DNA from: Escherichia coli
GTDB lineage: Bacteria > Pseudomonadota > Gammaproteobacteria > Enterobacterales > Enterobacteriaceae
DNA: 64,000 bases
NCBI RefSeq assembly: GCF_044647545.1
Contig: NZ_CP172818.1
Reading direction: 5' to 3' (one strand)
Numbering within the stretch: the stretch's first letter is position 1; every line of letters starts with the position of its first letter. A program made the translations under genes and the position numbers. The notes beneath the pieces were generated by a model. It made no database searches and was not told where the DNA came from. It worked only from the letters and a program-made list of their open reading frames with translations. This document shows positions 15,006-42,182 of this stretch, one piece after another.

Positions 15006-15010
15006 TGTCA

Positions 15011-15113: not shown

Positions 15114-15830
<717 letters not shown>

Positions 15831-15958
15831 TCAAGCCGCAGCAGATCTCTCGGGCAGGTCTGCTCATCCTCCTCAGGCAATACCTCTTACAGCAATTAGT
15901 TCTTCTTCTTCACTTTTCCGCTACAATTATCAACAAGTTGAATCGATAAGAGGCGGTA

Positions 15959-16921: not shown

Positions 16922-17877
16922 AGCTGAGCGGTAAAGAACTGAGCGCCGTCGCGAAGAGCCTCGTCGGCGGTTTTCATCATCCGTGAATAATGCAAAAAGG
17001 CGTGCAGCGTGCCTGGGTAGAGTTTGAACTCACAGGGCTGCTGATGCGCCGCTAACGTCTGGTAAAGCAGACGGCTGTCATCCAGCAGCGGATCGAACTC
17101 CGCCCCGGCAATAAAACAGGGCGGAACTTCGCGAGTGAGATCATTATTAAACAGGCAGTAATACGGCGACTCGCGGTCCGCGTCGTTGCTTAAATACGCC
17201 TCTTCATACATCTGTAAATCCTGTTGCGTTAAGCCATCCCAGACACCGCCCAACAGACGACGAGTCACGGAATCCCGTAATCCGTAAAGCCCATACCACA
17301 GCAAAACGCCCGCAACTTTACCGCAATCGATCTGTTTATCACGCAACCACAACGCACTGGCGAGCGCCAACATGGCACCTGCGGAATCACCGGCAAAGCC
17401 AATGCGGGACATATTGATTTGATAATCTTCCGCCTGCTGGTGGAAATAACAACAGGCAGCCACAATTTCCTCTATCGCTTGCGGAAAACACGCTTCAGGT
17501 GAAAGGGTGTAATCAATGCCAATCACCGTACATTGGCTGTAGCTTGCCAGCAGGCGCATGATGCGATCGTGGGTATCAAGATTGCCGAGAATAAAACCGC
17601 CGCCATGCAAATAAAATAGCGTCGCCGGGCTATCTGGCTGCGGACAAAAGAGACGTGTTTCCACCTGCCCATATTTTGTTGGAACCATGTAAGCTCTGGT
17701 TGCCATTTCTGGAGCGCCCGCATTCCAGAATCGGCGCTCAAGCGTGTAATGCTGTCGTTGCTCAGCAATCGTTCCCGTTGCGGGCCAGGGCGGTAAATCC
17801 GGCTGAAGAGTATTCACAACGGTCTTCATTTCAGCAGAAATAAGGTCCAGAACGGGTAATTTGTTTTCCGGCTTCAT
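16918..17877 (-). CDS. aes: Acetyl esterase Aes (alpha/beta hydrolase, HSL family)
   Basis: 319-aa ORF with HGGGF oxyanion motif and GDSAG nucleophile motif; 3' end overlaps hemH by 4 nt (convergent). Confidence 0.95.
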
Positions 17878-18028
17878 GCAAAAACTCCTTTCAAATTACG
17901 TCATTGTAAGGAACCACTGCCATGAAAATGCGATCCCGCCTGCTGATATTGAAACTGGCTGCGTCTCGCGCGCTCCCGTCAGATTGTGTTAACATTCGCC
18001 GCTCAGTTAACCACCCGTAAAAACAACC

Positions 18029-19333
18029 ATGAAATTTCCCGGCAAACGTAAATCCAAACATTATTTTCCCGTAAACGCACGCGATCCGCTGCTTCAGCAA
18101 TTCCAGCCAGAAAACGAAACCAGCGCTGCCTGGGTAGTGGGTATCGATCAAACGCTGGTCGATATTGAAGCGAAAGTGGATGATGAATTTATTGAGCGTT
18201 ATGGATTAAGCGCCGGGCATTCACTGGTGATTGAGGATGACGTAGCCGAAGCGCTTTATCAGGAACTAAAACAGAAAAACCTGATTACCCATCAGTTTGC
18301 GGGTGGCACCATTGGTAACACCATGCACAACTACTCGGTGCTCGCGGACGACCGTTCGGTGCTGCTGGGCGTCATGTGCAGCAATATTGAAATTGGCAGC
18401 TATGCCTATCGTTACCTGTGTAACACTTCCAGCCGTACCGATCTTAACTATCTACAAGGCGTGGATGGCCCGATTGGTCGTTGCTTTACGCTGATTGGCG
18501 AGTCCGGGGAACGTACCTTTGCTATCAGCCCCGGCCACATGAACCAGCTGCGGGCTGAAAGTATTCCGGAAGATGTGATTGCCGGAGCCTCGGCTCTGGT
18601 TCTCACCTCTTATCTGGTGCGTTGCAAGCCGGGTGAACCCATGCCGGAAGCAACCATGAAAGCTATTGAGTACGCGAAGAAATATAACGTACCGGTGGTG
18701 CTGACGCTGGGCACCAAGTTTGTCATTGCCGAGAATCCGCAGTGGTGGCAGCAATTCCTCAAAGACCACGTCTCTATCCTTGCGATGAACGAAGATGAAG
18801 CCGAAGCGTTGACCGGAGAAAGCGATCCGTTGTTGGCATCTGACAAGGCGCTGGACTGGGTTGATCTGGTGCTGTGTACCGCAGGGCCAATCGGCTTGTA
18901 TATGGCGGGCTTTACCGAAGACGAAGCGAAACGTAAAACCCAGCATCCGCTGCTGCCGGGTGCTATAGCGGAATTTAACCAGTATGAGTTTAGCCGCGCC
19001 ATGCGCCACAAGGATTGCCAGAATCCGTTGCGTGTCTATTCGCACATTGCGCCGTACATGGGCGGGCCGGAAAAAATTATGAATACCAACGGAGCAGGGG
19101 ATGGCGCACTGGCAGCGTTGCTGCATGACATTACCGCCAACAGCTACCACCGTAGCAACGTACCAAACTCCAGCAAACATAAATTCACCTGGTTAACTTA
19201 TTCATCGTTAGCGCAGGTGTGTAAATATGCTAACCGTGTGAGCTATCAGGTACTGAACCAGCATTCACCTCGTTTAACGCGCGGCTTGCCGGAGCGTGAA
19301 GACAGCCTGGAAGAGTCTTACTGGGATCGTTAA
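18029..19333 (+). CDS. gsk: Inosine-guanosine kinase
   Basis: 434-aa ORF MKFPGKRKSKHYFPVNARDPLLQQFQPENETSAAWVVGIDQTLVD (PfkB/ribokinase fold). Confidence 0.95.
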   Translation: MKFPGKRKSKHYFPVNARDPLLQQFQPENETSAAWVVGIDQTLVDIEAKVDDEFIERYGLSAGHSLVIEDDVAEALYQELKQKNLITHQFAGGTIGNTMHNYSVLADDRSVLLGVMCSNIEIGSYAYRYLCNTSSRTDLNYLQGVDGPIGRCFTLIGESGERTFAISPGHMNQLRAESIPEDVIAGASALVLTSYLVRCKPGEPMPEATMKAIEYAKKYNVPVVLTLGTKFVIAENPQWWQQFLKDHVSILAMNEDEAEALTGESDPLLASDKALDWVDLVLCTAGPIGLYMAGFTEDEAKRKTQHPLLPGAIAEFNQYEFSRAMRHKDCQNPLRVYSHIAPYMGGPEKIMNTNGAGDGALAALLHDITANSYHRSNVPNSSKHKFTWLTYSSLAQVCKYANRVSYQVLNQHSPRLTRGLPEREDSLEESYWDR

Positions 19334-19351
19334 GTTATCGACAACCAGAAT

Positions 19352-19396: not shown

Positions 19397-19409
19397 TGGA
19401 ATCAATGTT

Positions 19410-21086
19410 TTACCCCGTCACCACCTCACCCGCCGGTGGCGTTTCCAGCAGTTCCAGCATAGTACGGGCAATTTCACGCTCACCCATCACTACCTGATTC
19501 GCACCACGTTCGGTGATATACGCCACTTCATCGTCATAATGGGCGCGGGCAATAATCTCAATATCCGGATTTTTCGCGCGGGCAGATGCCACAATCTCGC
19601 CCGCTTCATAACCGTTGGGAATCGTCAGGATCAGCCATTTTGCACATTCCAGATGCGCCAGTTGCATAATTTCTTCGTTCGCCGCATTGCCCAATACTGC
19701 GCGGACCCCGCGCTCTCGCAGTTCATCAACACGGGTTCGTGACGTCTCAATCACCACCAGCGGAATATCAGAGGCGAGCAATTTCTCCCCCAGCAGGCTG
19801 CCTACACGACCGTAACCTACCAGTAGCGCATGGTTGCAAATATCCACTGGGATCTGCTTCTCTTCTTCGATAGCCTCTTCCAGCGTCTGCTCTTCCAGCG
19901 TTTCGGTCTTCGCCAGATATTTCTCCAGCAGCGCAAACAGGACCGGGTTGAGCATAATCGACAAAATCGCCCCTGCCAGTACCAGGTTCTGCCCGGCTTG
20001 CGGCAATAGATCCAGCGCCATGCCCAGTCCCGCCAGGATAAACGCGAACTCACCAATTTGCGCCAGGCTGGCGGCGATAGTTAATGCCGTACGTTGGGAG
20101 TGACCAAACAGTCGCACCAGGAAAAACGCGGCTAACGACTTACCAAACAGAATAATCGCCAGCGTCGCCAGCACTGCCAGCGGTTGCTGAATCAGAATTA
20201 ACGGATCAAACAACATCCCGACGGAGACAAAAAACAGCACCGCAAACGCGTCGCGCAATGGCAGCGTATCGTGGGCGGCACGGTGACTCAGTTCAGACTC
20301 GTTCAGTACCATCCCGGCAAAGAACGCACCGAGTGCAAAGGAGACATCAAACAGCTCCACCGCACCAAAGGCAATCCCTAACGCCAGCGCCAGCACCGAC
20401 AGGGTAAACAGCTCGCGGGAACCGGTTGCTGCGCTACGTGCCATAATCCACGGCACCAGACGGCGACCTACCAGCATCATAATGGCGATAAATGCGATCA
20501 CCTTGCCGATGGTGATCCCCATATCGACAGCAAGAGTGGCAAAGCCCACATCGCCTTGTTCCATCATTCCTGCCACTGCGGGCAGCAACACCAGCGTCAG
20601 AACCATGACCAGGTCTTCCACAATCAACCAACCGATGGCGATTTGCCCACGCTGACTGTCAATTAATTGCCGTTCTTCAAGTGCGCGCAGTAACACCACG
20701 GTACTGGCGGTGGAAAGGCATAAGCCGAACACGATACCGGTCATTAACGACCAGCCCAGCACGGCGGAGAGCGCCATACCCAGCAGCGTAGCCACGGCTA
20801 TCTGGGCGATCGCGCCGGGAATGGCGATGGCCTTTACCGCCATCAAATCCTTGAGCGAAAAGTGCAAACCGACGCCAAACATCAACAGAATGACGCCCAG
20901 TTCAGCCAGTTCCGGCGCAAGCTTGGTATCGGCAACAAAGCCCGGAGTGAATGGTCCTGCCAGCACACCCGCTAACAGATATCCCACCAGAGGAGAAATA
21001 CGTAGTTTATTGGCCAGCATGCCGAGGATAAAGGCGAGCACAAGGCCGCCAACAATGGTGGTGATAAGCGGGGTGGCGTGATGCAT
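19410..21086 (-). CDS. ybaL: CPA2-family cation/proton antiporter YbaL (KefB-like, C-terminal TrkA-N domain)
   Basis: 558-aa polytopic membrane ORF with C-terminal Rossmann GYGRVG motif. Confidence 0.94.
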   Translation of the reverse strand: MHHATPLITTIVGGLVLAFILGMLANKLRISPLVGYLLAGVLAGPFTPGFVADTKLAPELAELGVILLMFGVGLHFSLKDLMAVKAIAIPGAIAQIAVATLLGMALSAVLGWSLMTGIVFGLCLSTASTVVLLRALEERQLIDSQRGQIAIGWLIVEDLVMVLTLVLLPAVAGMMEQGDVGFATLAVDMGITIGKVIAFIAIMMLVGRRLVPWIMARSAATGSRELFTLSVLALALGIAFGAVELFDVSFALGAFFAGMVLNESELSHRAAHDTLPLRDAFAVLFFVSVGMLFDPLILIQQPLAVLATLAIILFGKSLAAFFLVRLFGHSQRTALTIAASLAQIGEFAFILAGLGMALDLLPQAGQNLVLAGAILSIMLNPVLFALLEKYLAKTETLEEQTLEEAIEEEKQIPVDICNHALLVGYGRVGSLLGEKLLASDIPLVVIETSRTRVDELRERGVRAVLGNAANEEIMQLAHLECAKWLILTIPNGYEAGEIVASARAKNPDIEIIARAHYDDEVAYITERGANQVVMGEREIARTMLELLETPPAGEVVTG

Positions 21087-21282
21087 TCCGTCTCCTTTTC
21101 CTGGTGGTTATTGTCCATTTTTGGCCGGGAAAACCAAAATTACAGGTAATAGTTTATGACAATTTCATTGATGATGTTTATGAATAATTGTTGAATTTTG
21201 CAGAAAAATGGAATTAGCTGCAAAAAAAGCACGGATCGGAAAACAGAAGGCGGTTTAACAGAGGAAAGGCTTATGGCGACTG

Positions 21283-21316
21283 TAAAACGATGCAGCCAAA
21301 GTTTGCCTTTGGCTGC
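21283..21316 (-). terminator. Rho-independent terminator of fsr
   Basis: Minus-strand hairpin GCAGCCAAAG-GCAAA-CTTTGGCTGC followed by a T-rich tract (reverse complement of AAAACGA), 8 nt after the fsr stop. Confidence 0.7.
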
Positions 21317-21323
21317 AATGAAA

Positions 21324-22544
21324 TCAGTCTTTATGCCGGTTATCAGGCAGGAATATGGTCAACATCCCCAATAGTGGCAGGAAAGCACAGATTTTATAGA
21401 CTAACTCGATGCTGGTGTGATCGGCGATAAGCCCCAGAACTGCCGCTCCCAGACCTCCCATGCCAAAAGCAAAACCGAAAAAGAATCCAGAAACCATACC
21501 GATACGTCCCGGAAGTAGCTCCTGAGCGTAGACCAGAATGGCAGAGAATGCCGAAGCGAGGATAAATCCAATAATCACCGTTAAAACCCCCGTCCAGTGC
21601 AGGCTGGCGTAGGGTAAAATCAGCGTAAACGGCGCAACGCCGAGGATAGAGCCCCAAATCACATATTTCCGTCCAATTTTATCCCCTACAGGCCCGCCGA
21701 TCACCGTACCTGCCGCAACGGCAAACAGGAAGGCAAACAGATGAAGCTGGGCATTCTGGATAGATAATCCGAATTTTTGCATCAGATAAAAGGTGTAATA
21801 GCTGCTGATGCTCGCCATATAGAAATATTTCGAGAAAATGAGGATTAACAGAATGCTGACCGCCAGTACCACTTTGTTGCGCGGCAGTGGATTGATAATC
21901 GTCGCTTTGGGTTTTCCTTTATTCATTCGGTGCTGTGCCGAGTACCAACGGCTGATTTGCGCCAGCACCACGATCGCCAGCAGTGCCGCAAGCACAAACC
22001 AGGCAACGTTGCCTTTGCCATAAGGCGCGATAATCACCGCCGCCAGCAAGGGTCCCAGGGAACTGCCAAAGTTGCCGCCGACCTGAAAGATAGATTGTGC
22101 CAGGCCATGCCGCCCGCCGGACGCCATACGGGCCACGCGAGAAGATTCCGGATGAAAGACCGATGAACCGGTACCGACCAGCGCCGCCGCCAGCAGAACT
22201 GCGCCAAAACTGCCCGCCAGCGCCAGCAGCACCAGACCACTTAAGGTAAAGCACATGCCAATTGGCAACGACCACGGCATCGGATATTTATCGGTCCAGT
22301 AGCCGACAACTGGTTGCAGTAGCGAAGAGGCGAGCTGGAAGGTGAGGGTTATCATGCCAATCTGCATAAATGTCAGAGAAAACTCTGACTGAAGCAGCGG
22401 ATAAATCGCCAGAATCAGCGATTGGATCATGTCGTTCAGCAGATGTGAGAGGCTGATAGCACCTAAAATACCAAACGATGTTCGGGCCTTGGTCGTTGAC
22501 GCAGCCGCGCCCGCCACAGGCTGGGTTTGTTCACTCATTGCCAT
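21324..22544 (-). CDS. fsr: MFS transporter Fsr (fosmidomycin resistance)
   Basis: 406-aa ORF, 12-TM MFS profile, MAMSEQTQPVAGAAASTTKARTSFGILGAISLSHLLNDMIQS. Confidence 0.94.
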   Translation of the reverse strand: MAMSEQTQPVAGAAASTTKARTSFGILGAISLSHLLNDMIQSLILAIYPLLQSEFSLTFMQIGMITLTFQLASSLLQPVVGYWTDKYPMPWSLPIGMCFTLSGLVLLALAGSFGAVLLAAALVGTGSSVFHPESSRVARMASGGRHGLAQSIFQVGGNFGSSLGPLLAAVIIAPYGKGNVAWFVLAALLAIVVLAQISRWYSAQHRMNKGKPKATIINPLPRNKVVLAVSILLILIFSKYFYMASISSYYTFYLMQKFGLSIQNAQLHLFAFLFAVAAGTVIGGPVGDKIGRKYVIWGSILGVAPFTLILPYASLHWTGVLTVIIGFILASAFSAILVYAQELLPGRIGMVSGFFFGFAFGMGGLGAAVLGLIADHTSIELVYKICAFLPLLGMLTIFLPDNRHKD

Positions 22545-22761
22545 AGGAAAGTCACTTTTTCAGGGTTGCGATGTAAAGAATGATCTTATTTGTGATTATT
22601 ACCCGACTAACATACCTGTATGCGCCGCCTGAAGGAAGTCTCAACGCTGAATACAGAATTTCTAATCTGGATGCAGATTTATCTTCACCGGACGCAGACT
22701 TGTCTATGATGTCGCGTCATACTATTTTTCAACACGTTGAAATCAGGTCAGGGAGAGAAGT

Positions 22762-24414
22762 ATGAAATTATTGCAGCGGGGCGTGGCGTTAGCACTGTTA
22801 ACCACATTTACACTGGCGAGTGAAACTGCTCTGGCGTACGAGCAGGATAAAACCTACAAAATTACAGTTCTGCACACCAATGATCATCATGGGCATTTTT
22901 GGCGCAATGAATATGGTGAATATGGTCTGGCGGCGCAAAAAACGCTGGTGGATGGTATCCGCAAAGAGGTTGCGGCTGAAGGCGGTAGCGTGCTGCTACT
23001 TTCCGGTGGCGACATTAACACTGGCGTGCCCGAGTCCGACTTACAGGATGCCGAACCTGATTTTCGCGGTATGAATCTGGTGGGCTATGACGCGATGGCG
23101 ATCGGTAATCATGAATTTGATAACCCGCTCACCGTATTACGCCAGCAGGAAAAGTGGGCTAAGTTCCCGTTGCTTTCCGCCAATATCTACCAGAAAAGTA
23201 CCGGCGAGCGCCTGTTTAAACCATGGGCGCTGTTTAAGCGTCAGGATCTGAAAATTGCCGTTATTGGCCTGACGACGGATGACACAGCCAAAATTGGTAA
23301 TCCGGAATATTTCACTGATATCGAATTTCGTAAGCCCGCTGATGAAGCGAAGCTGGTGATTCAGGAGCTGCAACAGACAGAAAAGCCAGACATTATTATC
23401 GCGGCGACCCATATGGGGCATTACGACAATGGTGAGCACGGCTCTAACGCACCGGGCGATGTGGAGATGGCACGCGCGCTGCCTGCCGGATCGCTGGCGA
23501 TGATCGTCGGTGGTCACTCGCAAGATCCGGTCTGTATGGCGGCAGAAAACAAAAAACAGGTCGATTACGTGCCGGGTACGCCATGCAAACCGGATCAACA
23601 AAACGGCATCTGGATTGTGCAGGCGCATGAGTGGGGCAAATACGTGGGACGGGCTGATTTTGAGTTTCGTAATGGCGAAATGAAAATGGTTAACTACCAG
23701 CTGATTCCGGTGAACCTGAAGAAGAAAGTGACCTGGGAAGACGGGAAAAGCGAGCGCGTGCTGTACACCCCTGAAATCGCTGAAAACCAGCAAATGATCT
23801 CGCTGTTATCACCGTTCCAGAACAAAGGCAAAGCGCAGCTGGAAGTGAAAATAGGCGAAACCAATGGTCGTCTGGAAGGCGATCGTGACAAAGTGCGTTT
23901 TGTACAGACCAATATGGGGCGGTTGATTCTGGCAGCACAAATGGATCGCACTGGTGCCGACTTTGCGGTGATGAGCGGAGGCGGAATTCGTGATTCTATC
24001 GAAGCAGGTGATATCAGCTATAAAAACGTACTGAAAGTGCAGCCATTCGGCAATGTGGTGGTGTATGCCGACATGACCGGTAAAGAGGTGATTGATTACT
24101 TGACCGCCGTCGCGCAGATGAAGCCAGATTCAGGTGCCTACCCGCAATTTGCCAACGTTAGCTTTGTGGCGAAAGACGGTAAACTGAACGACCTGAAAAT
24201 CAAAGGCGAACCGGTCGATCCGGCGAAAACTTACCGCATGGCGACATTAAACTTCAATGCCACCGGCGGGGATGGCTATCCGCGCCTTGATAACAAACCG
24301 GGCTATGTGAATACCGGCTTTATTGATGCCGAAGTGCTGAAAGCGTATATCCAGAAAAGCTCGCCGCTGGATGTGAGTGTTTATGAACCGAAAGGTGAGG
24401 TGAGCTGGCAGTAA
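22762..24414 (+). CDS. ushA: Periplasmic UDP-sugar hydrolase / 5'-nucleotidase UshA
   Basis: 550-aa ORF with signal peptide and metallophosphoesterase motifs (HTNDHHGH, GNHEFD). Confidence 0.96.
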   Translation: MKLLQRGVALALLTTFTLASETALAYEQDKTYKITVLHTNDHHGHFWRNEYGEYGLAAQKTLVDGIRKEVAAEGGSVLLLSGGDINTGVPESDLQDAEPDFRGMNLVGYDAMAIGNHEFDNPLTVLRQQEKWAKFPLLSANIYQKSTGERLFKPWALFKRQDLKIAVIGLTTDDTAKIGNPEYFTDIEFRKPADEAKLVIQELQQTEKPDIIIAATHMGHYDNGEHGSNAPGDVEMARALPAGSLAMIVGGHSQDPVCMAAENKKQVDYVPGTPCKPDQQNGIWIVQAHEWGKYVGRADFEFRNGEMKMVNYQLIPVNLKKKVTWEDGKSERVLYTPEIAENQQMISLLSPFQNKGKAQLEVKIGETNGRLEGDRDKVRFVQTNMGRLILAAQMDRTGADFAVMSGGGIRDSIEAGDISYKNVLKVQPFGNVVVYADMTGKEVIDYLTAVAQMKPDSGAYPQFANVSFVAKDGKLNDLKIKGEPVDPAKTYRMATLNFNATGGDGYPRLDNKPGYVNTGFIDAEVLKAYIQKSSPLDVSVYEPKGEVSWQ

Positions 24415-24421
24415 TCCGAAA

Positions 24422-24445
24422 GTGCCGGATGTTCGCATCCGGCAC
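24422..24445. terminator. Bidirectional hairpin between convergent ushA and ybaK
   Basis: GTGCCGGATG-TTCG-CATCCGGCAC, perfect 10-bp stem, 8 nt after the ushA stop. Confidence 0.65.
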
Positions 24446-24450
24446 AATGC

Positions 24451-24930
24451 TTAATCGCGACGGGCGATATCAGCAAATTTGGCATCGAGTATCTTTGCCA
24501 GGTCGCTTGCCGCCAGTTCGATATCCAGACCGCGCTTGCCGCCGGAAACATAAATAGTGGCAAATTCTTGTGCGGGGGTGTCGATAATCGTTGGCAGACG
24601 TTTTTTCTGCCCCAGTGGGCTAATCCCTCCAACCAGATATCCCGTCGAACGCTGCGCGACCATCGGATCGGCCATCTCAACTTTCTTGGCACCCAGCGCT
24701 TTTGCTACTTTTTTAAGATCCAGTTGACCTGCGACCGGCGTAACGGCCACGGCAAGGTGTTTCATATCACCGTTCACTGCGACCAGCAGCGTTTTGTAGA
24801 CCTGATCCGGATTCAAACCTAATTTTTTGACGACTTCATCGCCAAAATTGGTTTCAGCCGGATCGTGCTCGTAGGTGTGGATTTGAAACGAAATCTTGTT
24901 TTTTTCGAGTAATTTAACTGCGGGTGTCAT
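24451..24930 (-). CDS. ybaK: Cys-tRNA(Pro)/Cys-tRNA(Cys) deacylase YbaK
   Basis: 159-aa [42 protein letters not shown]. Confidence 0.95.
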
Positions 24931-25051
24931 GGTAATTTTCCTGCCTTAAACAAAAAAACGAAGCAAGCATACGCCTGATGGCGGTCCAAAAAAAAGAGTC
25001 ATCTTGCCTAAGAGTATTGGCAGGATGGTGAGATTGAGCGACAATCGAGTT

Positions 25052-25135
25052 ACACCGTCGCTTAAAGTGACGGCATAATAATAAAAAAATGAAATTCCTC
25101 TTTGACGGGCCAATAGCGATATTGGCCATTTTTTT
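25052..25135 (+). ncRNA. chiX: Hfq-dependent sRNA ChiX (MicM/SroB/RybC)
   Basis: ACACCGTCGCTTAAAGTGACGGCATAATAATAAAAAAATGAAATTCCTCTTTGACGGGCCAATAGCGATATTGGCCATTTTTTT recognised as ChiX; ends in hairpin GGCCAAT/ATTGGCC plus T-run; located between ybaK and ybaP as in K-12. Confidence 0.85.
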
Positions 25136-25928
25136 AGCGCAACATCTGCGGCAAATTCCCTTCTCCATACAGGTGTAGTGCACCAACCGCGACCACATAT
25201 CGCCCCGGCGGCATGGCGCGTAATTTGTCCCGCCAGGCGAGATTTCGCTGATGCATCAGCACATCGTACAGCGACTGACTGAACGTATTAGGCAGCGTTA
25301 TTTCATTATTTTGTGGCGGTGTATTCAGCCACCAGCTCATCATTTGTTGCAGCAACCGTGCGTTGGTGTGCCAGTGGGTCAGCGTATCGTCCAGCAGCGC
25401 CAGTCCGTTGTCAGGGAGCTGGAGCAACATGGCAATCTGGTTTTCTGCCCCTTCCAGTTCAATCACGGGTTTATGTTGTTGCTTCGCCGCCTGCAATAGC
25501 TGGTAATCGATACCGTATTCTGCCCGCAGCCCCAGTTTTTGTGCCTGCGTCGCCTGAAGAACCATCGCGATTTGCCACAGCGGTTGGGTAGAAAAGAGTG
25601 AGGTAGAAATGCCCATCTCCTGGCTAATGTGCTGCAGGTTTTGTAATTGCTCCTCGCTAATGCGCTCTTCCAGCGCCTCGCAGGCAGGCAAATTAGCAAA
25701 AGGCGTATCGCTGGTGGAAACATCCGCCTCGACGATCAGCGCATCGGCGTTTTTGAGCTTTTTGAGCAAACGGGTGGGCAGGGGAGCCATATCGTGGCTA
25801 CCCATATGAATACTGCCGAGCAGATGAAAATGGCGATTGCCGGGAAGAGAGATATCGATAGCAGGCCAGGTGTAATGATTACCGCGCAGCGCGGCCCAAA
25901 GCGTTTTTACCCGATACAACAGATCCAT
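25134..25928 (-). CDS. ybaP: TraB/GumN-family protein YbaP
   Basis: 264-aa ORF MDLLYRVKTLWAALRGNHYTWPAIDISLPGNRHFHLLGSIHMG. Confidence 0.92.
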   Translation of the reverse strand: MDLLYRVKTLWAALRGNHYTWPAIDISLPGNRHFHLLGSIHMGSHDMAPLPTRLLKKLKNADALIVEADVSTSDTPFANLPACEALEERISEEQLQNLQHISQEMGISTSLFSTQPLWQIAMVLQATQAQKLGLRAEYGIDYQLLQAAKQQHKPVIELEGAENQIAMLLQLPDNGLALLDDTLTHWHTNARLLQQMMSWWLNTPPQNNEITLPNTFSQSLYDVLMHQRNLAWRDKLRAMPPGRYVVAVGALHLYGEGNLPQMLR

Positions 25929-26089
25929 ACGACCTCCCTTTGTGAAATATCATGCTAGCGCGCGGGGAGGGATGGCGCAAATGGAGTTGTTGTCGCACTT
26001 GTGCACAGTGCTTGTGTGCATTACAATAATTAAACAATGGACAAGGAGATGAGAATGGAATGGCTCAAAAGAATAATATAAGGAGTTTT

Positions 26090-26347
26090 CGTGATCCTGC
26101 TGGCTGATTTTTTTTTCCATTCAACCCCACATCAAAAAATCCCTCTAAAATCCATACCACTTATCACAAAAGTGGACATCATTAATCCCCCCCCTTCTCT
26201 CCGTTTTCCCCCCCCCCCGAAACGAAAAAAAAAGTTTTGGAAAAAAAAAGAAATTTCCCCAAAAAAAAAAAAAAAAAAAAAAAAAAATAAAAAAGGGAAA
26301 AAAAAAAAGGAAAAAAAATTTTTTTAAAAAAAAAAAAAAAAAAAAAC
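26090..26347. other. Anomalous homopolymer-rich low-complexity tract (probable sequence/assembly artefact); not coding
   Basis: A runs longer than 25 nt, C runs of 8-10 nt and T runs; composition unlike any flanking E. coli sequence; the track ORFs here are poly-K and poly-F. Confidence 0.6.
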
Positions 26348-26379
26348 ATAGCTGTCGTATTGACGAGAAAGGTAAAACC

Positions 26380-26751
26380 ATGAAACAGGCAACAAGAAAA
26401 CCGACGACACCCGGAGATATTCTTCTCTATGAATATCTGGAACCGCTCGATTTGAAAATCAATGAGTTAGCAGAGTTACTGCATGTTCATCGTAATAGCG
26501 TCAGTGCACTGATCAATAATAATCGTAAACTCACCACTGAAATGGCATTCCGTCTGGCGAAAGTTTTTGATACCACAGTCGATTTTTGGCTAAACCTCCA
26601 GGCGGCAGTTGATCTTTGGGAAGTTGAAAACAACATGCGTACCCAGGAAGAATTGGGACGGATTGAAACAGTGGCTGAATATTTGGCACGCCGTGAAGAG
26701 CGTGCAAAAAAGGTCGCGTATATGCGCCACCCTAAAGCAGTGCATCCGTAA
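26380..26751 (+). CDS. ybaQ: XRE-family HTH protein YbaQ (HigA antitoxin-like)
   Basis: 123-aa ORF MKQATRKPTTPGDILLYEYLEPLDLKINELAELLHVHRNSVSALINNNRKLTTEMAFRLAKVFDTTVDFWLNLQAAVDLW; pattern typical of HigA-family HTH. Confidence 0.9.
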   Translation: MKQATRKPTTPGDILLYEYLEPLDLKINELAELLHVHRNSVSALINNNRKLTTEMAFRLAKVFDTTVDFWLNLQAAVDLWEVENNMRTQEELGRIETVAEYLARREERAKKVAYMRHPKAVHP

Positions 26752-26759
26752 TGATGTAC

Positions 26760-29264
26760 TTATTCCTTCGGTTTAAATCGCAGCAATCGGTTGGCGTTAC
26801 TCACTACGGTAATCGACGAGAGCGCCATTGCCGCTCCGGCAACCACCGGGTTAAGCAGCGTACCGGTGAACGGCCACAAAATACCGGCGGCGACCGGAAT
26901 ACCAATGCTGTTGTAGATAAACGCACCGAGCAGGTTCTGCTTCATATTGCGCAGCGTTGCGCGGGAAATCGCGAGCGCATCTGCAACACCCATCAGGCTA
27001 TGGCGCATCAGGGTAATCGCCGCGGTTTCAATGGCAACATCACTGCCGCCACCCATCGCAATACCGACATCCGCCTGAGCCAGCGCTGGCGCGTCGTTAA
27101 TGCCGTCGCCCACCATTGCCACCTGACGTCCTTCACTTTGCAGACGTTTGATCGCTTCGGCTTTACCGTCCGGTAGCACCCCGGCTATCACCTCATCAAT
27201 CCCTGCTTCTTTGGCGATCGCATTGGCGGTGGTTGGGTTATCCCCGGTTAGCATCACCAGACGATATCCCGCTTTATGCAGGCGTTGCAGCGCCGCCACG
27301 CTATCACTACGCAACGGATCGCGTACAGCCAGCAGGGCTACCGCTTTCCCGTCAACCGCCAGCAGCACAGGCGTTGCCCCTTGCGATGCCTGAGCTGAAA
27401 TATCTGCCTCAATCGCTTTAGTATCAACTTGCTGGTCATTTAACAGCGCCTGATTACCCAGCAATAACGCATGACCTTCAGCTTCACCGCTCACGCCCAG
27501 CCCGCGCAATGTGCGGAAACCGTTGACCTGCGGCAGCTGCATATCACCTGCTTTATCGAGGATCGCTCGTGCCAGCGGATGGCTGGAACCTTGCTCCAGT
27601 GCCGCCGCCAGACGCAATGCCTGCGCTTCATCAACATCAGCAAACGTTTTCACTGCGACAACCTGCGGCTTCCCTTCGGTCAGCGTCCCGGTTTTATCGA
27701 ACACGACGGTGTCGAGCGTACTGGCGCGTTGCAGCGCGTCAGCGTCCCGCACCAGCACGCCAAACTCAGCCGCCCGCCCGACGCCCGAAATAATCGACAT
27801 CGGCGTCGCCAGTCCCAGCGCACACGGACAGGCAATAATCAGCACCGTGGTGGCAATCACCAGGGTATAGACAATTTGCGGTGCCGGACCAAAGAAATAC
27901 CAGATTGCCGCACTGACAAGCGCAATAACCACTACTACCGGCACAAATACGGCTGAGATTTTATCCGCCAGTTGACCGATTTCTGGCTTGCTGCTCTGGG
28001 CCTGTCGCACCATGCGAATGATCCGTGACAGCGTAGTATGGCTGCCGACCGCACTGGCGCGAAACAGCACACTGCCGTCCTGTACCACTGTCCCGGCATG
28101 GACGCTATCGCCTTCGCCTTTTTGCTGCGGGATTGGTTCGCCCGTCAGCATCGCTTCATCCAGCCACGCTTCGCCCTGGGTAATTTCACCATCTACCGGC
28201 ACCCGATCACCCGTCGTCAGGCGCAGCAACATACCTGGCTGAACATCTGCCAGCGGCACGTTTTTTTCACCTTCGTTGGTGACCAGGCGCGCCGTCGGTG
28301 GGGTTAAATCGAGTAATTTCTCCAGCGCCTTAGAAGAACGCTGACGTGCGCGCGCTTCCAGCATATGACCGAGATTAATCAGACCGATAATCATCGCACT
28401 GGCTTCATAGTAAAGATGTCGCGCTTCCATCGGGAACCACTGCGGCCACAGGTTGACGCTCATTGAATAGAGCCACGCCACGCCCGTACCCAGCGCCACC
28501 AGCGTATCCATCGTCGCTGCACCGTTCAGCAGGCTTTTCCATGCGCTGCGGTAAAAATGGCCGCCGGCGAAAACCATTACCGCCAGGGTTATCAGGCCGA
28601 TAACCAACCACAGGCTGCGGTTGTCGGCGGTGACCATCATGTTATCGCCGATCATCCCCCAGACCATCACCGGGATACCCACCGCCAGTGCGACAATCGC
28701 CTGCCAGCGGAAGCGCTTCATCGTAGCGACGGCGGTTTCTTGCTGGCGCTCGCGGCGTTTAGCGTCATCTTCAATCGCTTCCGCGCCGTAGCCCGCTTTT
28801 TCCACCGCCTGCACTAAATCTTGTGGGGAGGCACTGCCCATCACCAGCGCAGTACGCTCCGCCAGGTTTACCCGTGCCTGAGTGACGCCCGGTACGCTTT
28901 GCAACGCATTTTGTACGCGGGTGACACAGCTGGCGCAGCTCATGCCGCTCAGCAGCAACTGCTGGCTGTCATCGTCATCGGCGGTCGCTGCCGGAAGCGC
29001 CTCAGAAACCGCTGTCAGTGCTTCCGACGGGATTGATGACTCCGCCAGCGGTTTAGCCTTTGGGTGGCTTACAGATGCGTCATAACCCGCTTGTTTGATG
29101 GTTTCGATCAGCTGTTCTGCACTGGCAGTCCCGGTAACGTGCGCTTCAGTGACAGACACATCCGCCTGCTCAACATCCGGGCGCTGTTCGAGACTTTCTT
29201 TCACGCGTTTAACGCAGTGACCGCAGGACAGGCCGTCCAGGGTCAGGTCGATAGTTTGTGACAT
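26760..29264 (-). CDS. copA: Cu(I)-exporting P1B-type ATPase CopA
   Basis: 834-aa ORF with two N-terminal GxxCxxC metal-binding domains (GLSCGHC, GMSCASC), CPC transmembrane motif and DKTGTLT phosphorylation site. Confidence 0.97.
29053..29064 (-). other. copA: copA programmed -1 frameshift site giving the CopA(Z) metallochaperone (slippery C CCA AAG, -1 frame GGC TAA)
   Basis: mRNA-sense CACCCAAAGGCTAAACCG at codons 67-72 of copA (plus-strand CTTTGGG at 29058..29064); -1 frame stop TAA lies immediately after the slip site. Confidence 0.75.
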
Positions 29265-29312
29265 AAAACACTCCTTTTAAGACAGTTTTGACTGGCTGTG
29301 ATAAAGGTTAAA

Positions 29313-29331
29313 CCTTCCAGCAAGGGGAAGG
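29313..29331 (-). promoter_or_regulatory. CueR (MerR-family) operator dyad within the copA promoter
   Basis: CCTTCC-N7-GGAAGG inverted repeat; on the copA strand it sits inside a 19-bp spacer following -35 TTGACC (reverse complement of 29331..29336), typical of MerR-type promoters. Confidence 0.85.
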
Positions 29332-29526
29332 TCAAGAAATTAATAAACCAGGCGGGTAAAAGTACGTAAAGATTAAAAAATCGGCTCGATTTGCATCAGG
29401 ATTAGACATTTATCTCTTTGTTTTCCTGTAGTTAAGTTGCGGGTGCTAAGTTAAATCAGGATGCCTGAAAATTGGCACCGGGGTGAGGAATTACCTCCCG
29501 CATCTATAAAAAGGAGTTAACAAAAG

Positions 29527-30459
29527 ATGTTAGATGCAAACAAATTACAGCAGGCAGTGGATCAGGCTTACACCCAATTTCACTCACTTAACGGCGGACA
29601 AAATGCCGACTACATTCCCTTTCTGGCGAATGTACCTGGTCAACTGGCAGCAGTGGCTATTGTGACCTGCGATGGCAACATCTATCGCGCGGGTGATAGT
29701 GATTACCGCTTTGCGCTGGAATCCATCTCGAAAGTCTGTACGTTAGCCCTTGCGTTAGAAGATGTCGGCCCGCAGGCGGTACAGGACAAAATTGGCGCTG
29801 ACCCGACCGGATTGCCCTTTAACTCAGTTATCGCCTTAGAGTTGCATGGCGGCAAACCGCTGTCGCCACTGGTAAATGCTGGCGCTATTGCCACCACCAG
29901 CCTGATTAACGCTGAAAATACTGAACAACGCTGGCAGCGAATTTTACATATCCAACAACAACTGGCTGGTGAGCAGGTAGCGCTCTCTGACGAAGTCAAC
30001 CAGTCGGAACAAACAACCAACTTCCATAACCGGGCCATTGCCTGGCTGCTGTACTCCGCCGGATATCTCTATTGTGATGCAATGGAAGCCTGTGACGTGT
30101 ACACCCGTCAGTGCTCCACGCTCATCAATACTGTTGAACTGGCAACGCTTGGCGCGACGCTGGCGGCGGGTGGTGTGAATCCGCTGACGCATAAACGCGT
30201 TCTTCAGGCCGACAACGTGCCGTACATTCTGGCTGAAATGATGATGGAAGGGCTGTATGGTCGCTCCGGTGACTGGGCGTATCGCGTTGGTTTACCGGGC
30301 AAAAGCGGTGTAGGTGGCGGTATTCTGGCGGTCGTCCCTGGCGTGATGGGAATTGCCGCGTTCTCACCACCGCTGGACGAAGAAGGCAACAGTGTTCGCG
30401 GTCAAAAAATGGTGGCATCGGTCGCTAATCAACTCGGCTATAACGTGTTTAAGGGCTGA
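29527..30459 (+). CDS. glsA: Glutaminase 1 (acid-resistance glutaminase YbaS)
   Basis: 310-aa ORF MLDANKLQQAVDQAYTQFHSLNGGQNADYIPFLANV. Confidence 0.95.
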   Translation: MLDANKLQQAVDQAYTQFHSLNGGQNADYIPFLANVPGQLAAVAIVTCDGNIYRAGDSDYRFALESISKVCTLALALEDVGPQAVQDKIGADPTGLPFNSVIALELHGGKPLSPLVNAGAIATTSLINAENTEQRWQRILHIQQQLAGEQVALSDEVNQSEQTTNFHNRAIAWLLYSAGYLYCDAMEACDVYTRQCSTLINTVELATLGATLAAGGVNPLTHKRVLQADNVPYILAEMMMEGLYGRSGDWAYRVGLPGKSGVGGGILAVVPGVMGIAAFSPPLDEEGNSVRGQKMVASVANQLGYNVFKG

Positions 30460-30461
30460 TC

Positions 30462-31754
30462 ATGATGAACACGGAAGGTAATAACGATAACAAACCCCTC
30501 GGTCTATGGAACGTCGTTTCCATCGGTATTGGGGCAATGGTGGGGGCGGGGATCTTCGCGCTGCTGGGGCAGGCTGCGTTGCTAATGGAAGCCTCGACCT
30601 GGGTCGCCTTTGCTTTTGGCGGTATTGTGGCGATGTTTTCCGGTTATGCCTATGCGCGCCTGGGGGCGAGCTATCCCAGCAATGGCGGTATTATCGACTT
30701 CTTTCGTCGCGGATTAGGCAACGGCGTCTTTTCGCTGGCACTCTCGTTATTGTACCTGTTGACGCTGGCGGTGAGCATCGCCATGGTCGCCCGTGCTTTT
30801 GGCGCTTATGCCGTGCAGTTTTTGCATGAAGGCAGTCAGGAGGAGCACCTTATATTGCTCTACGCGTTGGGGATCATTGCGGTGATGACGCTTTTCAACT
30901 CCTTAAGCAACCATGCGGTAGGGCGGCTGGAAGTGATCCTCGTCGGCATTAAAATGATGATCCTGTTATTGCTGATCATTGCCGGTGTCTGGTCGCTGCA
31001 ACCGGCGCATATTTCCGTCTCTGCGCCCCCCAGCTCCGGTGCGTTCTTCTCCTGTATCGGGATAACCTTCCTTGCCTATGCGGGCTTTGGCATGATGGCG
31101 AACGCGGCGGATAAAGTGAAAGATCCGCAGGTCATTATGCCACGGGCGTTTCTGGTGGCGATTGGCGTTACCACGTTGCTTTATATCTCGCTGGCGCTGG
31201 TTTTGCTTAGCGATGTATCGGCATTAGAGTTAGAAAAATATGCCGATACCGCCGTAGCGCAGGCAGCTTCTCCGCTGCTCGGGCATGTGGGTTATGTGAT
31301 CGTCGTCATCGGCGCTTTACTGGCGACGGCTTCAGCCATCAACGCGAACCTGTTCGCCGTGTTTAACATCATGGACAACATGGGCAGCGAACGCGAACTG
31401 CCGAAGCTAATGAATAAATCCCTGTGGCGGCAGAGTACCTGGGGCAACATCATTGTCGTGGTGCTGATTATGCTGATGACGGCGGCGCTGAATTTAGGCT
31501 CACTCGCCAGCGTTGCCAGCACCACCTTTTTGATCTGCTATCTGGCGGTGTTTGTGGTGGCGATCCGCCTACGTCATGATATTCACGCCTCGTTGCCGAT
31601 TCTTATCGTTGGTACGTTGGTGATGTTGTTGGTGATCGTTGGCTTTATCTACAGCCTGTGGTCCCAGGGCAGCCGTGCGTTGATATGGATTATTGGTGCA
31701 ATCTTACTCAGCCTTATTGTGGCAATGGTCATGAAGCGCAATAAAACCGTATAA
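30462..31754 (+). CDS. ybaT: APC-family amino acid transporter YbaT
   Basis: 430-aa polytopic ORF starting 2 nt after the glsA stop (operon). Confidence 0.93.
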   Translation: MMNTEGNNDNKPLGLWNVVSIGIGAMVGAGIFALLGQAALLMEASTWVAFAFGGIVAMFSGYAYARLGASYPSNGGIIDFFRRGLGNGVFSLALSLLYLLTLAVSIAMVARAFGAYAVQFLHEGSQEEHLILLYALGIIAVMTLFNSLSNHAVGRLEVILVGIKMMILLLLIIAGVWSLQPAHISVSAPPSSGAFFSCIGITFLAYAGFGMMANAADKVKDPQVIMPRAFLVAIGVTTLLYISLALVLLSDVSALELEKYADTAVAQAASPLLGHVGYVIVVIGALLATASAINANLFAVFNIMDNMGSERELPKLMNKSLWRQSTWGNIIVVVLIMLMTAALNLGSLASVASTTFLICYLAVFVVAIRLRHDIHASLPILIVGTLVMLLVIVGFIYSLWSQGSRALIWIIGAILLSLIVAMVMKRNKTV

Positions 31755-31878
31755 CATCTCTCTGTGCGCAGTACTTCCTGTATTATTGTGGTGGCGGTCG
31801 ATATTCGCACTGGCAAAAAAACGTGCTTGAATATTTGTTGAAACCCTTTAACAAAGCACAGGAGGCGTTGCGCGAACG

Positions 31879-32286
31879 ATGAACATTAGCGATGTAGCAA
31901 AAATTACCGGCCTGACCAGCAAAGCCATTCGCTTCTATGAAGAGAAGGGGCTGGTGACGCCGCCGATGCGCAGCGAAAACGGTTATCGCACCTACACGCA
32001 GCAGCATCTCAACGAACTGACCTTACTGCGCCAGGCACGCCAGGTGGGCTTTAACCTGGAGGAGAGCGGCGAACTGGTGAATCTGTTTAACGATCCGCAG
32101 CGTCATAGTGCCGACGTCAAACGTCGTACGCTGGAGAAGGTGGCGGAGATCGAACGGCATATCGAAGAACTGCAATCCATGCGCAACCAGCTACTGGCGC
32201 TGGCGAATGCCTGCCCTGGCGATGACAGCGCCGACTGCCCGATTATCGAAAATCTCTCCGGCTGCTGTCATCATCGGGCGGGGTGA
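31879..32286 (+). CDS. cueR: Cu-responsive MerR-family activator CueR
   Basis: 135-aa [42 protein letters not shown] with C-terminal [10 protein letters not shown] metal site. Confidence 0.96.
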
Positions 32287-32756
32287 TTAAAAGAAAAAAA
32301 GGCGATGACCGCACGGATAATCAGCGTTATCCCTTCTATCGCAATCACCTCAACATGCGTACCTGCACTGAGATCCTCGCTGGCGCTGACAGGCCATGAA
32401 CTGTCACCGACGCGCATATGACCACGCCCGTTGACCAGCGGAGATTCCAGAACAAAACGTCGGCCAATCAACTGCTGCCCGCGCTGGTTTAAATGACTGT
32501 CGCTGTGCTTTTGTTCGCGCACCCGCCGCGACAACCATTTCCACCACAGCCAGGCGGCGAGCAGCGTCAGGACGGCAAACATTACCCCTTGCCACTCCCA
32601 ACCCAGCGGCAGCAACCAGACCACCAGACCGGTAATCACCGCTGCCACGCCGCTCCACAACAGATAACCATTGCCGCCCAACATCTCGGCTGCCAGCAGC
32701 AAACCGCCGAGACTTAGCCAGAAAATATGTGGATGAACGACCATTAACTCCATCAT
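32271..32756 (-). CDS. ybbJ: NfeD-like inner membrane protein YbbJ (partner of QmcA)
   Basis: 161-aa ORF; start ATG overlaps the qmcA stop (ATGA); 3' end overlaps the cueR 3' end by 16 nt. Exact start not verified. Confidence 0.85.
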
Positions 32757-33670
32757 GGCTGAGTCCGTTTGTTGGCGCTGTCTTTCACCAGCTCGGCAAT
32801 CCCGGCAATCGACCCCATCAGGCTGCTGGCCTCTAATGGCATCATCACTACTTTGCTGTTACTGGACGAACCGATCTGCTGTAACGCTTCGGTGTATTTC
32901 TGTGCGACGAAGTAGTTCACCGCCTGAATATCACCGGAGGCAATGGCTTCAGATACCATTTTGGTGGCGCGGGCTTCTGCTTCGGCAGAACGTTCACGCG
33001 CTTCGGCCTGTAAGAATGCCGATTGACGTTCACCTTCCGCTTTCAGGATTTGCGACTGTTTTTCACCTTCAGCTTTGAGGATTTCCGCCTGACGGATCCC
33101 TTCCGCTTCAAGGATGTAAGCGCGTTTGGTACGTTCCGCTTTCATCTGCGCGTTCATTGAAGAGATAAGCTCTGCCGGTGGGCGCACGTCGCGAATTTCA
33201 ATACGGGTGACTTTAATCCCCCACGGGTTGGTGGCTTCATCGACAATACGCAGCAGGCGTGAGTTGATGCTGTCGCGCTGAGAGAGCATTTCGTCAAGTT
33301 CCATTGAACCCAGCACGGTACGGATGTTAGTCATGGTCAGGTTGATGATCGCCAGCTCCAGATTGCTGACTTCATAAGCCGCGCGCGGCGCGTCAATCAC
33401 CTGAATAAAGCACACGGCGTCGATGGTAACGTTGGCGTTATCTTTCGAGATAACTTCCTGGGAAGGGATATCGAGCACTTGCTCCATCATATTGATCTTG
33501 CGACCAATGCGATCCATAAACGGCACCACCAGACTGAGCCCCGGCTGTAACGTTTTGGTATAGCGACCAAAACGTTCTACTGTCCACTGATAGCCCTGCG
33601 GCACGATTTTGACGCCCGCGCCGACAATGACCAGCGCGACAAAAATGAGAATCGGGATAAAGATAAGCAT
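32753..33670 (-). CDS. qmcA: SPFH/stomatin-family membrane protein QmcA (YbbK)
   Basis: 305-aa [40 protein letters not shown]. Confidence 0.95.
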
Positions 33671-33815
33671 CGGAAAAACCTCCTGTTGTACCGTCCATAA
33701 TCAGCAAAATTGCTGCTTGATTAAACAAATTATACCTGATTACTGAAAGAGAGTTCCCCCTTATTCCTGCGAAGGATAAACTGTTTTTAGTAAAAATCAG
33801 AAAAAGGGAACAGTG

Positions 33816-34493
33816 ATGCAGGAAAATAGTCCTTTGCTTCAGCTACAAAACGTAGGATATCTGGCGGGTGATGCGAAGATTCTTAATAACATCAATTTTT
33901 CGCTGCGTGCTGGCGAATTTAAGTTAATTACCGGTCCTTCTGGTTGTGGCAAAAGTACGCTGCTAAAAATAGTTGCTTCATTGATCAGCCCAACCAGCGG
34001 AACGTTACTGTTTGAAGGTGAGGATGTCAGCACACTAAAGCCAGAAATCTACCGCCAGCAAGTCTCTTATTGCGCCCAGACGCCGACGCTGTTTGGCGAC
34101 ACGGTATACGATAATCTGATCTTTCCTTGGCAGATCCGTAACCAGCAGCCTGACCCAGCCATTTTTCTCGATTTTCTCGAACGCTTCGCCTTACCGGACA
34201 CCATTTTGACGAAGAATATCGCCGAGCTATCTGGTGGGGAAAAACAACGCATCTCATTGATTCGTAACCTGCAATTTATGCCGAAGGTTTTATTGCTGGA
34301 TGAAATAACCAGTGCGCTGGACGAAAGTAATAAACATAACGTTAATGAGATGATCCACCGTTATGTGCGCGAGCAAAATATTGCCGTGCTGTGGGTGACA
34401 CACGATAAAGACGAAATTAATCATGCGGATAAAGTGATTACACTGCAACCGCATGCCGGAGAAATGCAGGAAGCACGCTATGAACTCGCATAA
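33816..34493 (+). CDS. fetA: ABC transporter ATP-binding protein FetA (YbbL), iron export
   Basis: Track ORF 33813 (GTG) trimmed to ATG at 33816; Walker A GPSGCGKST and signature LSGGEKQR. Confidence 0.93.
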   Translation: MQENSPLLQLQNVGYLAGDAKILNNINFSLRAGEFKLITGPSGCGKSTLLKIVASLISPTSGTLLFEGEDVSTLKPEIYRQQVSYCAQTPTLFGDTVYDNLIFPWQIRNQQPDPAIFLDFLERFALPDTILTKNIAELSGGEKQRISLIRNLQFMPKVLLLDEITSALDESNKHNVNEMIHRYVREQNIAVLWVTHDKDEINHADKVITLQPHAGEMQEARYELA

Positions 34494-35259
34494 TATTACT
34501 AACGAATCATTAGCACTGGCATTGATGCTGGTGGTGGTGGCAATCTTAATTAGCCATAAAGAAAAACTGGCGCTGGAGAAAGATATTCTCTGGAGCGTCG
34601 GGCGCGCGATAATCCAGCTGATTATTGTCGGCTATGTGCTGAAGTATATTTTCAGCGTGGATGATGCCAGCCTGACATTATTGATGGTGTTATTTATCTG
34701 CTTTAATGCGGCGTGGAATGCGCAAAAACGCAGTAAATATATTGCTAAAGCTTTTATCTCATCGTTTATTGCCATTACGGTCGGGGCGGGAATTACCCTG
34801 GCGGTGCTGATTCTCTCAGGGTCGATTGAATTTATCCCGATGCAGGTGATCCCTATCGCCGGGATGATAGCCGGTAACGCCATGGTAGCGGTGGGGTTGT
34901 GTTACAACAATTTAGGGCAACGGGTGATTAGCGAACAGCAACAGATTCAGGAGAAACTGAGTCTTGGCGCGACGCCGAAACAGGCTTCAGCGATATTGAT
35001 TCGCGACAGTATTCGCGCTGCTTTAATTCCGACGGTCGATTCAGCAAAAACGGTAGGCTTAGTGAGTTTACCAGGAATGATGTCCGGGCTGATATTTGCC
35101 GGGATTGATCCGGTGAAGGCGATTAAATATCAGATTATGGTGACCTTTATGCTGCTCTCAACCGCCAGCCTGTCGACCATTATTGCCTGCTATTTAACCT
35201 ATCGTAAGTTTTACAATTCGCGCCACCAGTTGGTGGTGACGCAATTGAAGAAGAAATGA
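34480..35259 (+). CDS. fetB: ABC transporter permease FetB (YbbM)
   Basis: Track ORF 34453..35259 trimmed to ATG at 34480 (MNSHNITNESLALALMLVVVAIL); overlaps fetA 3' end by 14 nt. Confidence 0.9.
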   Translation: MNSHNITNESLALALMLVVVAILISHKEKLALEKDILWSVGRAIIQLIIVGYVLKYIFSVDDASLTLLMVLFICFNAAWNAQKRSKYIAKAFISSFIAITVGAGITLAVLILSGSIEFIPMQVIPIAGMIAGNAMVAVGLCYNNLGQRVISEQQQIQEKLSLGATPKQASAILIRDSIRAALIPTVDSAKTVGLVSLPGMMSGLIFAGIDPVKAIKYQIMVTFMLLSTASLSTIIACYLTYRKFYNSRHQLVVTQLKKK

Positions 35260-35265
35260 TGCAAT

Positions 35266-35291
35266 GCCGGATGCGCAGCATCGCATCCGGC
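35266..35291. repeat. REP-like palindromic hairpin between fetB and cnoX
   Basis: GCCGGATGCG-CAGCAT-CGCATCCGGC, perfect 10-bp stem. Confidence 0.7.
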
Positions 35292-35321
35292 GTTGTGGTT
35301 CATGTGCCGATCAACGGAAAC

Positions 35322-36218
<897 letters not shown>

Positions 36219-36236
36219 TTAAGCGCGCGCTTCAAC

Positions 36237-37662: not shown

Positions 37663-38312
37663 CTTAAGAAGTCCGTCGGTCAGGGGGAGCATGAACTCTC
37701 CATCCTCACCGGAGTTGAGCTGGTTGTCAAACGTGGCGAGACCATCGCGCTGGTGGGCGAGTCGGGATCGGGTAAGTCAACCTTGCTGGCGATCCTCGCC
37801 GGGCTGGATGACGGCAGCAGTGGCGAAGTAAATCTGGTGGGACAACCGCTACATAATATGGACGAAGAAGCGCGGGCAAAGTTACGCGCGAAGCACGTAG
37901 GTTTTGTTTTTCAGTCATTTATGTTAATTCCTACCCTTAACGCGCTGGAAAACGTCGAGCTTCCGGCGCTGCTGCGCGGTGAAAGTAGCGTGGAAAGTCG
38001 TAACGGGGCAAAAGCGTTGCTCGAACAGTTAGGACTGGGTAAACGTCTGGATCATCTTCCGGCACAGCTTTCCGGCGGCGAACAGCAACGAGTGGCGCTG
38101 GCGCGAGCTTTTAATGGTCGGCCTGATGTGCTGTTTGCCGACGAACCCACCGGCAATCTTGACCGCCAGACGGGCGATAAAATTGCCGACCTGCTGTTTT
38201 CCCTCAACCGTGAACATGGCACCACGTTGATTATGGTGACCCACGACCTGCAACTGGCGGCACGCTGCGACCGCTGCTTACGGCTGGTGAACGGGCAGTT
38301 GCAGGAGGAAGC

Positions 38313-38316: not shown

Positions 38317-42182
<3,866 letters not shown>

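Follow-up and report, generated by a model that had tools for sequence, protein, structure and literature searches.

The ybaQ locus in an Escherichia coli genome record: a known higB-1/ybaQ module whose toxin gene is probably garbled by a sequence artefact

Background

In one genome record of Escherichia coli, the antitoxin-like gene ybaQ stands without an intact toxin gene beside it, and the position immediately upstream, where a HigB-type toxin gene would be expected, is taken up by homopolymer runs. Is this a solitary antitoxin gene of the kind known from K-12, or has upstream information been lost from the sequence? A preliminary description of the window (the whole analysed stretch of 64,000 nucleotides, a piece of the chromosome extending from acrB to purK) had put forward both possibilities. 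Here we argue, with a probability that we place at roughly 90%, that the locus is the known higB-1/ybaQ module and that its toxin gene has been overwritten by a technical sequence artefact. The artefact call rests on the pattern of the sequence and on comparison with close relatives, which are isolates other than the one recorded here.

Results and discussion

The ybaQ gene and its altered 3' end

The open reading frame in question starts with ATG, lies on the plus strand at 26380-26751 and encodes 123 amino acids, with the sequence given in the preliminary description. Its product matches the NCBIfam profile TIGR02607 ('HigA family addiction module antitoxin') over residues 6-84 with 105 bits against a cut-off of 47.7 (E=1.4e-30) and Pfam HTH_3 with 43.2 bits against a cut-off of 23 (E=4e-11), and residues 1-113 are identical to the YbaQ structure PDB 2EBY at 113 of 113 positions. 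YbaQ thus belongs to the HigA family, as the preliminary description had proposed from the HTH pattern of the protein.

Alignment to the complete genome of strain FDAARGOS_497 (NZ_CP033850.1) shows that codons 1-113 are identical in DNA sequence to the gene for WP_000806442.1. In that genome, ybaQ consists of 113 codons followed by a TAG stop, whereas at 26720/26721 of the window 19 nt are missing that its own lineage has. The TAG is lost with them, so that ten further codons are read through and the open reading frame comes to 123 rather than 113 amino acids. The resulting deletion junction, searched as one contiguous match, was found in none of 5426 complete E. coli genomes. The two parts of the reading frame can be described as follows.

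26380..26718, plus strand: the 113 codons of ybaQ itself, encoding an HTH antitoxin and repressor of the HigA family (TIGR02607, HTH_3, 2EBY, WP_000806442.1)
26719..26751, plus strand: C-terminal read-through, most likely artefactual, of ten codons (YMRHPKAVHP) from the ybaQ-copA spacer, followed by TAA (19-nt loss)

Most likely, then, the true ybaQ extends from 26380 to 26718 and ends in a stop codon that the window has lost, and the end at 26751 is artefactual; judging from the alignment, the source DNA would carry TAG directly after codon 113, followed by AATAATTTCCCTATAACGG. The preliminary assignment of the gene to 26380-26751 therefore holds for its start and sequence and fails for its end, which lies in the read-through past the lost TAG. 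The C-terminal tail of YbaQ has been described and used as a ClpXP/ClpAP degron (PMC12239797), and a ten-residue extension, if real, would bury it.

The toxin gene in clean genomes of the same lineage

Positions 1-25000 of the window are approximately 100.0% identical to many ST648-type complete genomes, including those of strains ST648, IMT16316, MS6198 and FDAARGOS_497. When the segment 25100-27000 was compared with the 5426 complete E. coli genomes, the locus was present in almost all of them, and in 1265 the whole query was covered and a RelE/ParE toxin coding sequence lay between ybaP and ybaQ; about 77% of complete genomes are missing this gene, higB-1. In NZ_CP033850.1 the toxin is encoded by 303 nt (100 aa, WP_000057541.1), ends 35 nt upstream of ybaQ and is annotated as a 'type II toxin-antitoxin system RelE/ParE family toxin'; PGAP annotates both this gene and ybaQ already. 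The protein matches Pfam PF05015 (HigB-like_toxin) with 111.5 bits against a cut-off of 27 (E=2.7e-32), over profile positions 2-91 of 91, and its nearest solved structure is 6F8S chain B (E=2e-15).

In the clean same-lineage genomes, ybaQ thus occupies the position typical of HigA, directly 3' of a HigB-type toxin gene in the reversed toxin-antitoxin order, and the expectation of such a gene immediately upstream of ybaQ proved correct. At the same position in the window there is a garbled, collinear remnant of the toxin gene. Of the two alternatives in the preliminary description, it is the loss of upstream information that agrees with these data, since clean sequence from the lineage holds an intact gene for a 100-aa HigB-like toxin; a clean interval consisting of a short promoter region with no toxin remnant, which would have spoken against a lost partner, is the opposite of what was seen. 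The other alternative, an orphan antitoxin as in K-12, is right about K-12, which has no toxin gene here, and wrong about the lineage of this genome, which carries one.

The promoter-operator region

The sequence between the divergent ybaP gene, whose start codon ends at 25928, and the beginning of higB-1 is nearly intact.

25929..26059, plus strand: predicted higB-1/ybaQ promoter-operator region (sequence; promoter-like site at 26002-26030; identical to FDAARGOS_497 except for a 1-nt gap)

The promoter-like site includes a TACAAT -10-like hexamer at 26022-26027, and an AAGGAG ribosome-binding site follows at 26043-26048. An 8-bp palindrome, TGTGCACA, was spotted by eye at 26000-26007, enclosed in a near-palindrome, GCACTTGTGCACAGTGC, at 25995-26011; a search for repeats in the promoter region returned no inverted repeats at a seed of 6 and one weak direct repeat. 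As the palindrome overlaps the promoter-like site, it is a plausible candidate for the YbaQ operator, and a YbaQ binding motif has been reported in the higB-1 promoter (bioRxiv 10.1101/2020.05.25.114553). The single gap is an A missing after 25989, where GAGTTGATTG of the lineage references reads GAGTTGTTG; the missing base, at 25989/25990, is exactly the one at which homology to K-12 stops.

The garbled tract

Downstream of the promoter, the window retains the beginning of the toxin gene and then departs from it progressively.

26060..26345, plus strand: what is left of the toxin gene higB-1, which in intact references spans 303 nt and encodes 100 aa (collinear alignment to the NZ_CP033850.1 coding sequence for WP_000057541.1; tblastn)

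The ATG is at 26060 and the first 11 codons match FDAARGOS_497 exactly. From about 26096, 36 nt into the gene, single-base losses and changes set in, the early ones affecting G almost exclusively, and the reading frame is shifted. The remnant can be read as far as about 26184 (some 125 nt, to about codon 42), with 87-97% identity per 30-nt bin, and from about 26185 to 26342 it consists of homopolymer runs, identity falling to about 45% before it jumps back to 100% at the toxin stop codon; the numbers of identical bases in successive 30-nt bins are 30, 29, 27, 26, 27, 19, 19, 19, 13, 16, 20 and then 30. Between 26108 and 26346 there are runs of A27, A21, C11 and A11, among others, which bears out the earlier observation that the interval is filled by a homopolymer tract; elsewhere in the window, runs of at least 8 are confined to one cluster near 40.8-40.9 kb and an A8 at 24988. 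The tract contains some 62 substitutions and 19 deleted bases within 250 nt, and the length is nearly kept (248 nt for the garbled stretch against 265 nt in the reference). Each of the 67 substitutions scored in the remnant yields the same base as one beside it, and in 51 cases the new base is A.

A tblastn search of the interval with the intact lineage toxin recovered the remnant in two frames, residues 1-35 from 26060 (E=4e-10) and residues 15-78 in another frame (E=5e-12), and against the whole window the remnant was found at about 1e-6. Hence the statement that ybaQ lacks a toxin partner is accurate in that the window has no intact toxin ORF, and inaccurate in that a garbled, collinear higB-1 remnant lies at 26060-26345. 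A 78-aa open reading frame at 26091-26327 gave no PF05015 match and no significant NCBIfam match in profile searches, and the window as written encodes no functional toxin. The exact tract sequence is found in 0 of the 5426 complete E. coli genomes, and an exact 46-nt piece of it in none of 100,044 species-representative genomes.

A structured RNA in the tract was also considered and ruled out, the only Rfam match in the window being to the small RNA ChiX (RF00368 sroB, 82 bits). This gene, at 25052-25135 on the plus strand, is intact between ybaK and the 3' end of ybaP, as it is in K-12.

Distribution of differences along the window

Over 62.7 kb, the window differs from NZ_CP033850.1 by nine clusters of differences and a missing 2.5-kb island. 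The sole isolated SNP relative to FDAARGOS_497 in about 62 kb is at 28340 (G in the window, A in the reference), inside copA. With a single lone SNP over such a distance, the roughly 62 substitutions and 19 deleted bases of the tract do not represent divergence. The comparison with K-12, which covered the first 40.7 kb of the window, yielded homology blocks at 1-8081, 8137-15831, 15882-19340, 19409-25989, 26374-26720 and 26722-40701. The gaps between blocks make up about 1.4% of the compared stretch, and seven of the eight error clusters up to 40.7 kb fall in these gaps or at block edges, the eighth being the copA SNP. The damage thus tracks DNA that is not shared with K-12, which points to the way in which the sequence was produced rather than to selection.

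Several of these sites deserve mention in their own right. A second and larger garbled stretch occupies 40701-41056 in the ybbP-mnmH intergenic region, where about 356 nt stand in place of the 614 nt of the lineage reference, with 264 scattered deleted bases, 59 substitutions and runs of G, A and C (G8 at 40799, A12 at 40929); since this is where K-12 carries the rhsD cluster, the segment is again a strain-variable one. Smaller base losses relative to ST648-type genomes are found at 8099-8104 (2 nt), 15846 (3 nt), 19342-19349 (7 nt) and 54012 (14 nt), the first three just past the stop codons of mscK, adk and gsk, respectively, in intergenic DNA that differs from K-12. The missing 2.5-kb island lies between cueR and ybbJ in ST648-type genomes and encodes a YadA-family autotransporter adhesin together with two hypothetical proteins; in its stead the window has a junction at 32286-32300 that reads TGATTAAAAGAAAAAAAGG, K-12-like at its start and then A-rich. 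This absence may be either a real strain difference or the work of the same artefact.

Competing explanations

The substitutions copy neighbouring bases, the register is kept and the lineage is otherwise without divergence, and for these reasons we consider the tract an artefact. Bases, G first, would have been lost or replaced by a neighbour, progressively, until only homopolymer runs were left, and the same kind of degradation would have removed the 19 nt at the ybaQ stop codon. No mutational process known to us would smear a gene into neighbour-base runs and leave its register intact. If the artefact reading is correct, the source DNA should contain an intact 303-nt higB-1 gene identical to that for WP_000057541.1 and, at 25989, GATTG instead of GTTG. 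Candidate sources of the artefact are low-quality read ends bridging variable segments, a reference-guided or mixed-strain consensus, and imputed sequence.

The tract could instead be real, with higB-1 destroyed in vivo as a pseudogene, ybaQ newly orphaned, and a genuine 19-nt deletion that adds ten residues to YbaQ and buries its degron. Loss of higB-1 does recur in nature, given the large fraction of complete genomes without it and the stop codon in strain CFT073, and the frameshifting single-base losses begin within otherwise good sequence. We nevertheless regard this scenario as unlikely: no known process yields collinear A27, A21 and C11 runs with length kept and every substitution copied from a neighbour, the lineage is otherwise one isolated SNP apart in 62 kb, like damage recurs at several sites and, over the 40.7 kb compared, its clusters all fall in DNA that K-12 does not have, and neither tract nor deletion junction occurs in any of the 5426 complete genomes. 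In a variant that we hold to be very unlikely, tract and deletion are both genuine and some process turns bases into their neighbours in strain-variable DNA, erasing higB-1, extending YbaQ by ten residues, masking the degron and stabilising a new orphan regulator. A foreign low-complexity insertion in place of the toxin gene, be it a mobile-element scar or a poly(A)-tailed retro-insertion, strikes us as extremely improbable. The A-rich runs superficially resemble retroelement tails, and ISApl1 is found at this locus in one strain; yet the register with the toxin gene is kept throughout, the islands GGG, TTTTTA and TTCC stay in place, and there are no repeats or target duplications, no RNA family match and nothing alike in the 5426 genomes. 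Natural divergence, a mobile-element scar and retro-insertion were accordingly rejected as origins of the tract, since it is strictly collinear with the gene, its substitutions copy neighbouring bases and no other divergence is seen.

Finally, the chance that ybaQ has been solitary all along, exactly as in K-12, with an upstream interval that never held a toxin gene, is practically nil. K-12 and most E. coli are indeed arranged in this manner; in the window, however, the ybaP-ybaQ spacer measures 451 nt rather than 137, positions 25929-26094 (166 nt) correspond to the toxin-bearing haplotype minus one base, toxin start and 11 codons included, and homology to K-12 ends at 25989 to resume at 26374. 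A solitary gene of the K-12 type has neither toxin gene nor remnant between ybaP and ybaQ, whereas nothing in K-12 corresponds to the segment 25990-26373 of the window, which is collinear with higB-1. A solitary ybaQ without a former toxin gene is thus refuted by the alignment, the K-12 comparison and the tblastn remnant.

Relation to known systems

The artefact reading places the locus, in all probability, with a described chromosomal type II toxin-antitoxin module, the higB-1/ybaQ pair of E. coli phylogroup B2/F strains, an assignment made by sequence comparison. The locus, the genes and their order (ybaP, higB-1, ybaQ, copA) are the same as in the strains studied by Rousset et al. (bioRxiv 10.1101/2020.05.25.114553), and for the window's lineage identity is 100% both in ybaQ and over the still legible 5' stretch of higB-1. 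The only differences in the window are that higB-1 is unreadable past about codon 42 and that the ybaQ stop codon is lost, both most likely artefacts. K-12 YbaQ, which was called a solitary antitoxin in 2007 by RASTA-Bacteria (PMC2374986), is identical to the window protein over all 113 residues; K-12 differs in having no toxin gene, an unrelated 137-nt ybaP-ybaQ spacer and REP elements downstream of ybaQ, whereas the window represents the toxin-bearing haplotype. A natural disruption near the module is seen in strain CFSAN061771 (NZ_CP042896.1), where an IS30-like ISApl1 element is inserted in the ybaP/higB-1 region and splits the match in two.

The closest solved relative of both partners is PDB 6F8S (E=2e-15 for the toxin with chain B, E=3e-10 for YbaQ with chain A), which we take to be the GraT/GraA complex of Pseudomonas putida; the entry itself labels the chains 'Putative Killer protein' and 'XRE family transcriptional regulator'. 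GraT has a disordered N-terminus and a cold-dependent phenotype. The two systems have in common the toxin-first gene order, a PF05015 HigB-like toxin and a HigA-type HTH antitoxin; they differ in genus, and the similarity of the toxins is clear but partial, with an alignment that spans residues 5-87 only. The HigB/HigA pair of plasmid Rts1 (Proteus vulgaris; PDB 4MCT, 4MCX, 4YPB) and HigBA-1 of Vibrio cholerae likewise combine a PF05015 toxin with a HigA-family partner in this gene order, and sequence similarity between Rts1 HigB and HigB-1 is marginal (E about 0.02-0.03). The higBA system that K-12 itself possesses (ygjNM) has a toxin of a different family, PF09907.

A model for the function of the module

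An intact module of this type would follow the usual HigBA layout, with a promoter, the toxin gene and the antitoxin gene in that order. HigB-1, a RelE-superfamily HigB-like toxin of 100 aa, would by family membership be a ribosome-dependent mRNA endonuclease. By analogy with Rts1 HigB and V. cholerae HigB-1, both of which cut mRNA at the A site of the ribosome (PMC11980606), it may act at the same place. YbaQ would bind the toxin directly and neutralise it, and it represses the shared promoter. It is presumably labile to proteolysis, and a tail that serves as a ClpXP/ClpAP degron would fit a labile antitoxin.

The published genetic data concern the same pair of genes (bioRxiv 10.1101/2020.05.25.114553). 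In that study, ybaQ was essential in 5 of 18 E. coli strains, and analysis of the locus suggested that these are B2 and F strains with higB-1 upstream. In CFT073, where higB-1 contains a premature stop, ybaQ is non-essential; in strain S88, knock-down of ybaQ led to strong derepression of higB-1; and most phylogroups, the one to which K-12 belongs included, are without higB-1.

Implications

Earlier publications already describe the higB-1/ybaQ pair and report that it is restricted to certain phylogroups, that ybaQ is conditionally essential and that K-12 has it in solitary form; the only novelty here is a warning about the quality of the record. The toxin gene of this locus is garbled rather than absent, so that what looks like an orphan antitoxin beside an anomalous tract is an effect of data quality laid over a known module, and the same corruption yields a false ten-residue extension of YbaQ. 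Since the errors sit in strain-variable segments that are not shared with K-12, accessory-gene calls made from this record are suspect. More broadly, a toxin that seems to be missing beside its antitoxin may owe its absence to local corruption of the sequence, which calls for caution when the presence or absence of such genes is scored.
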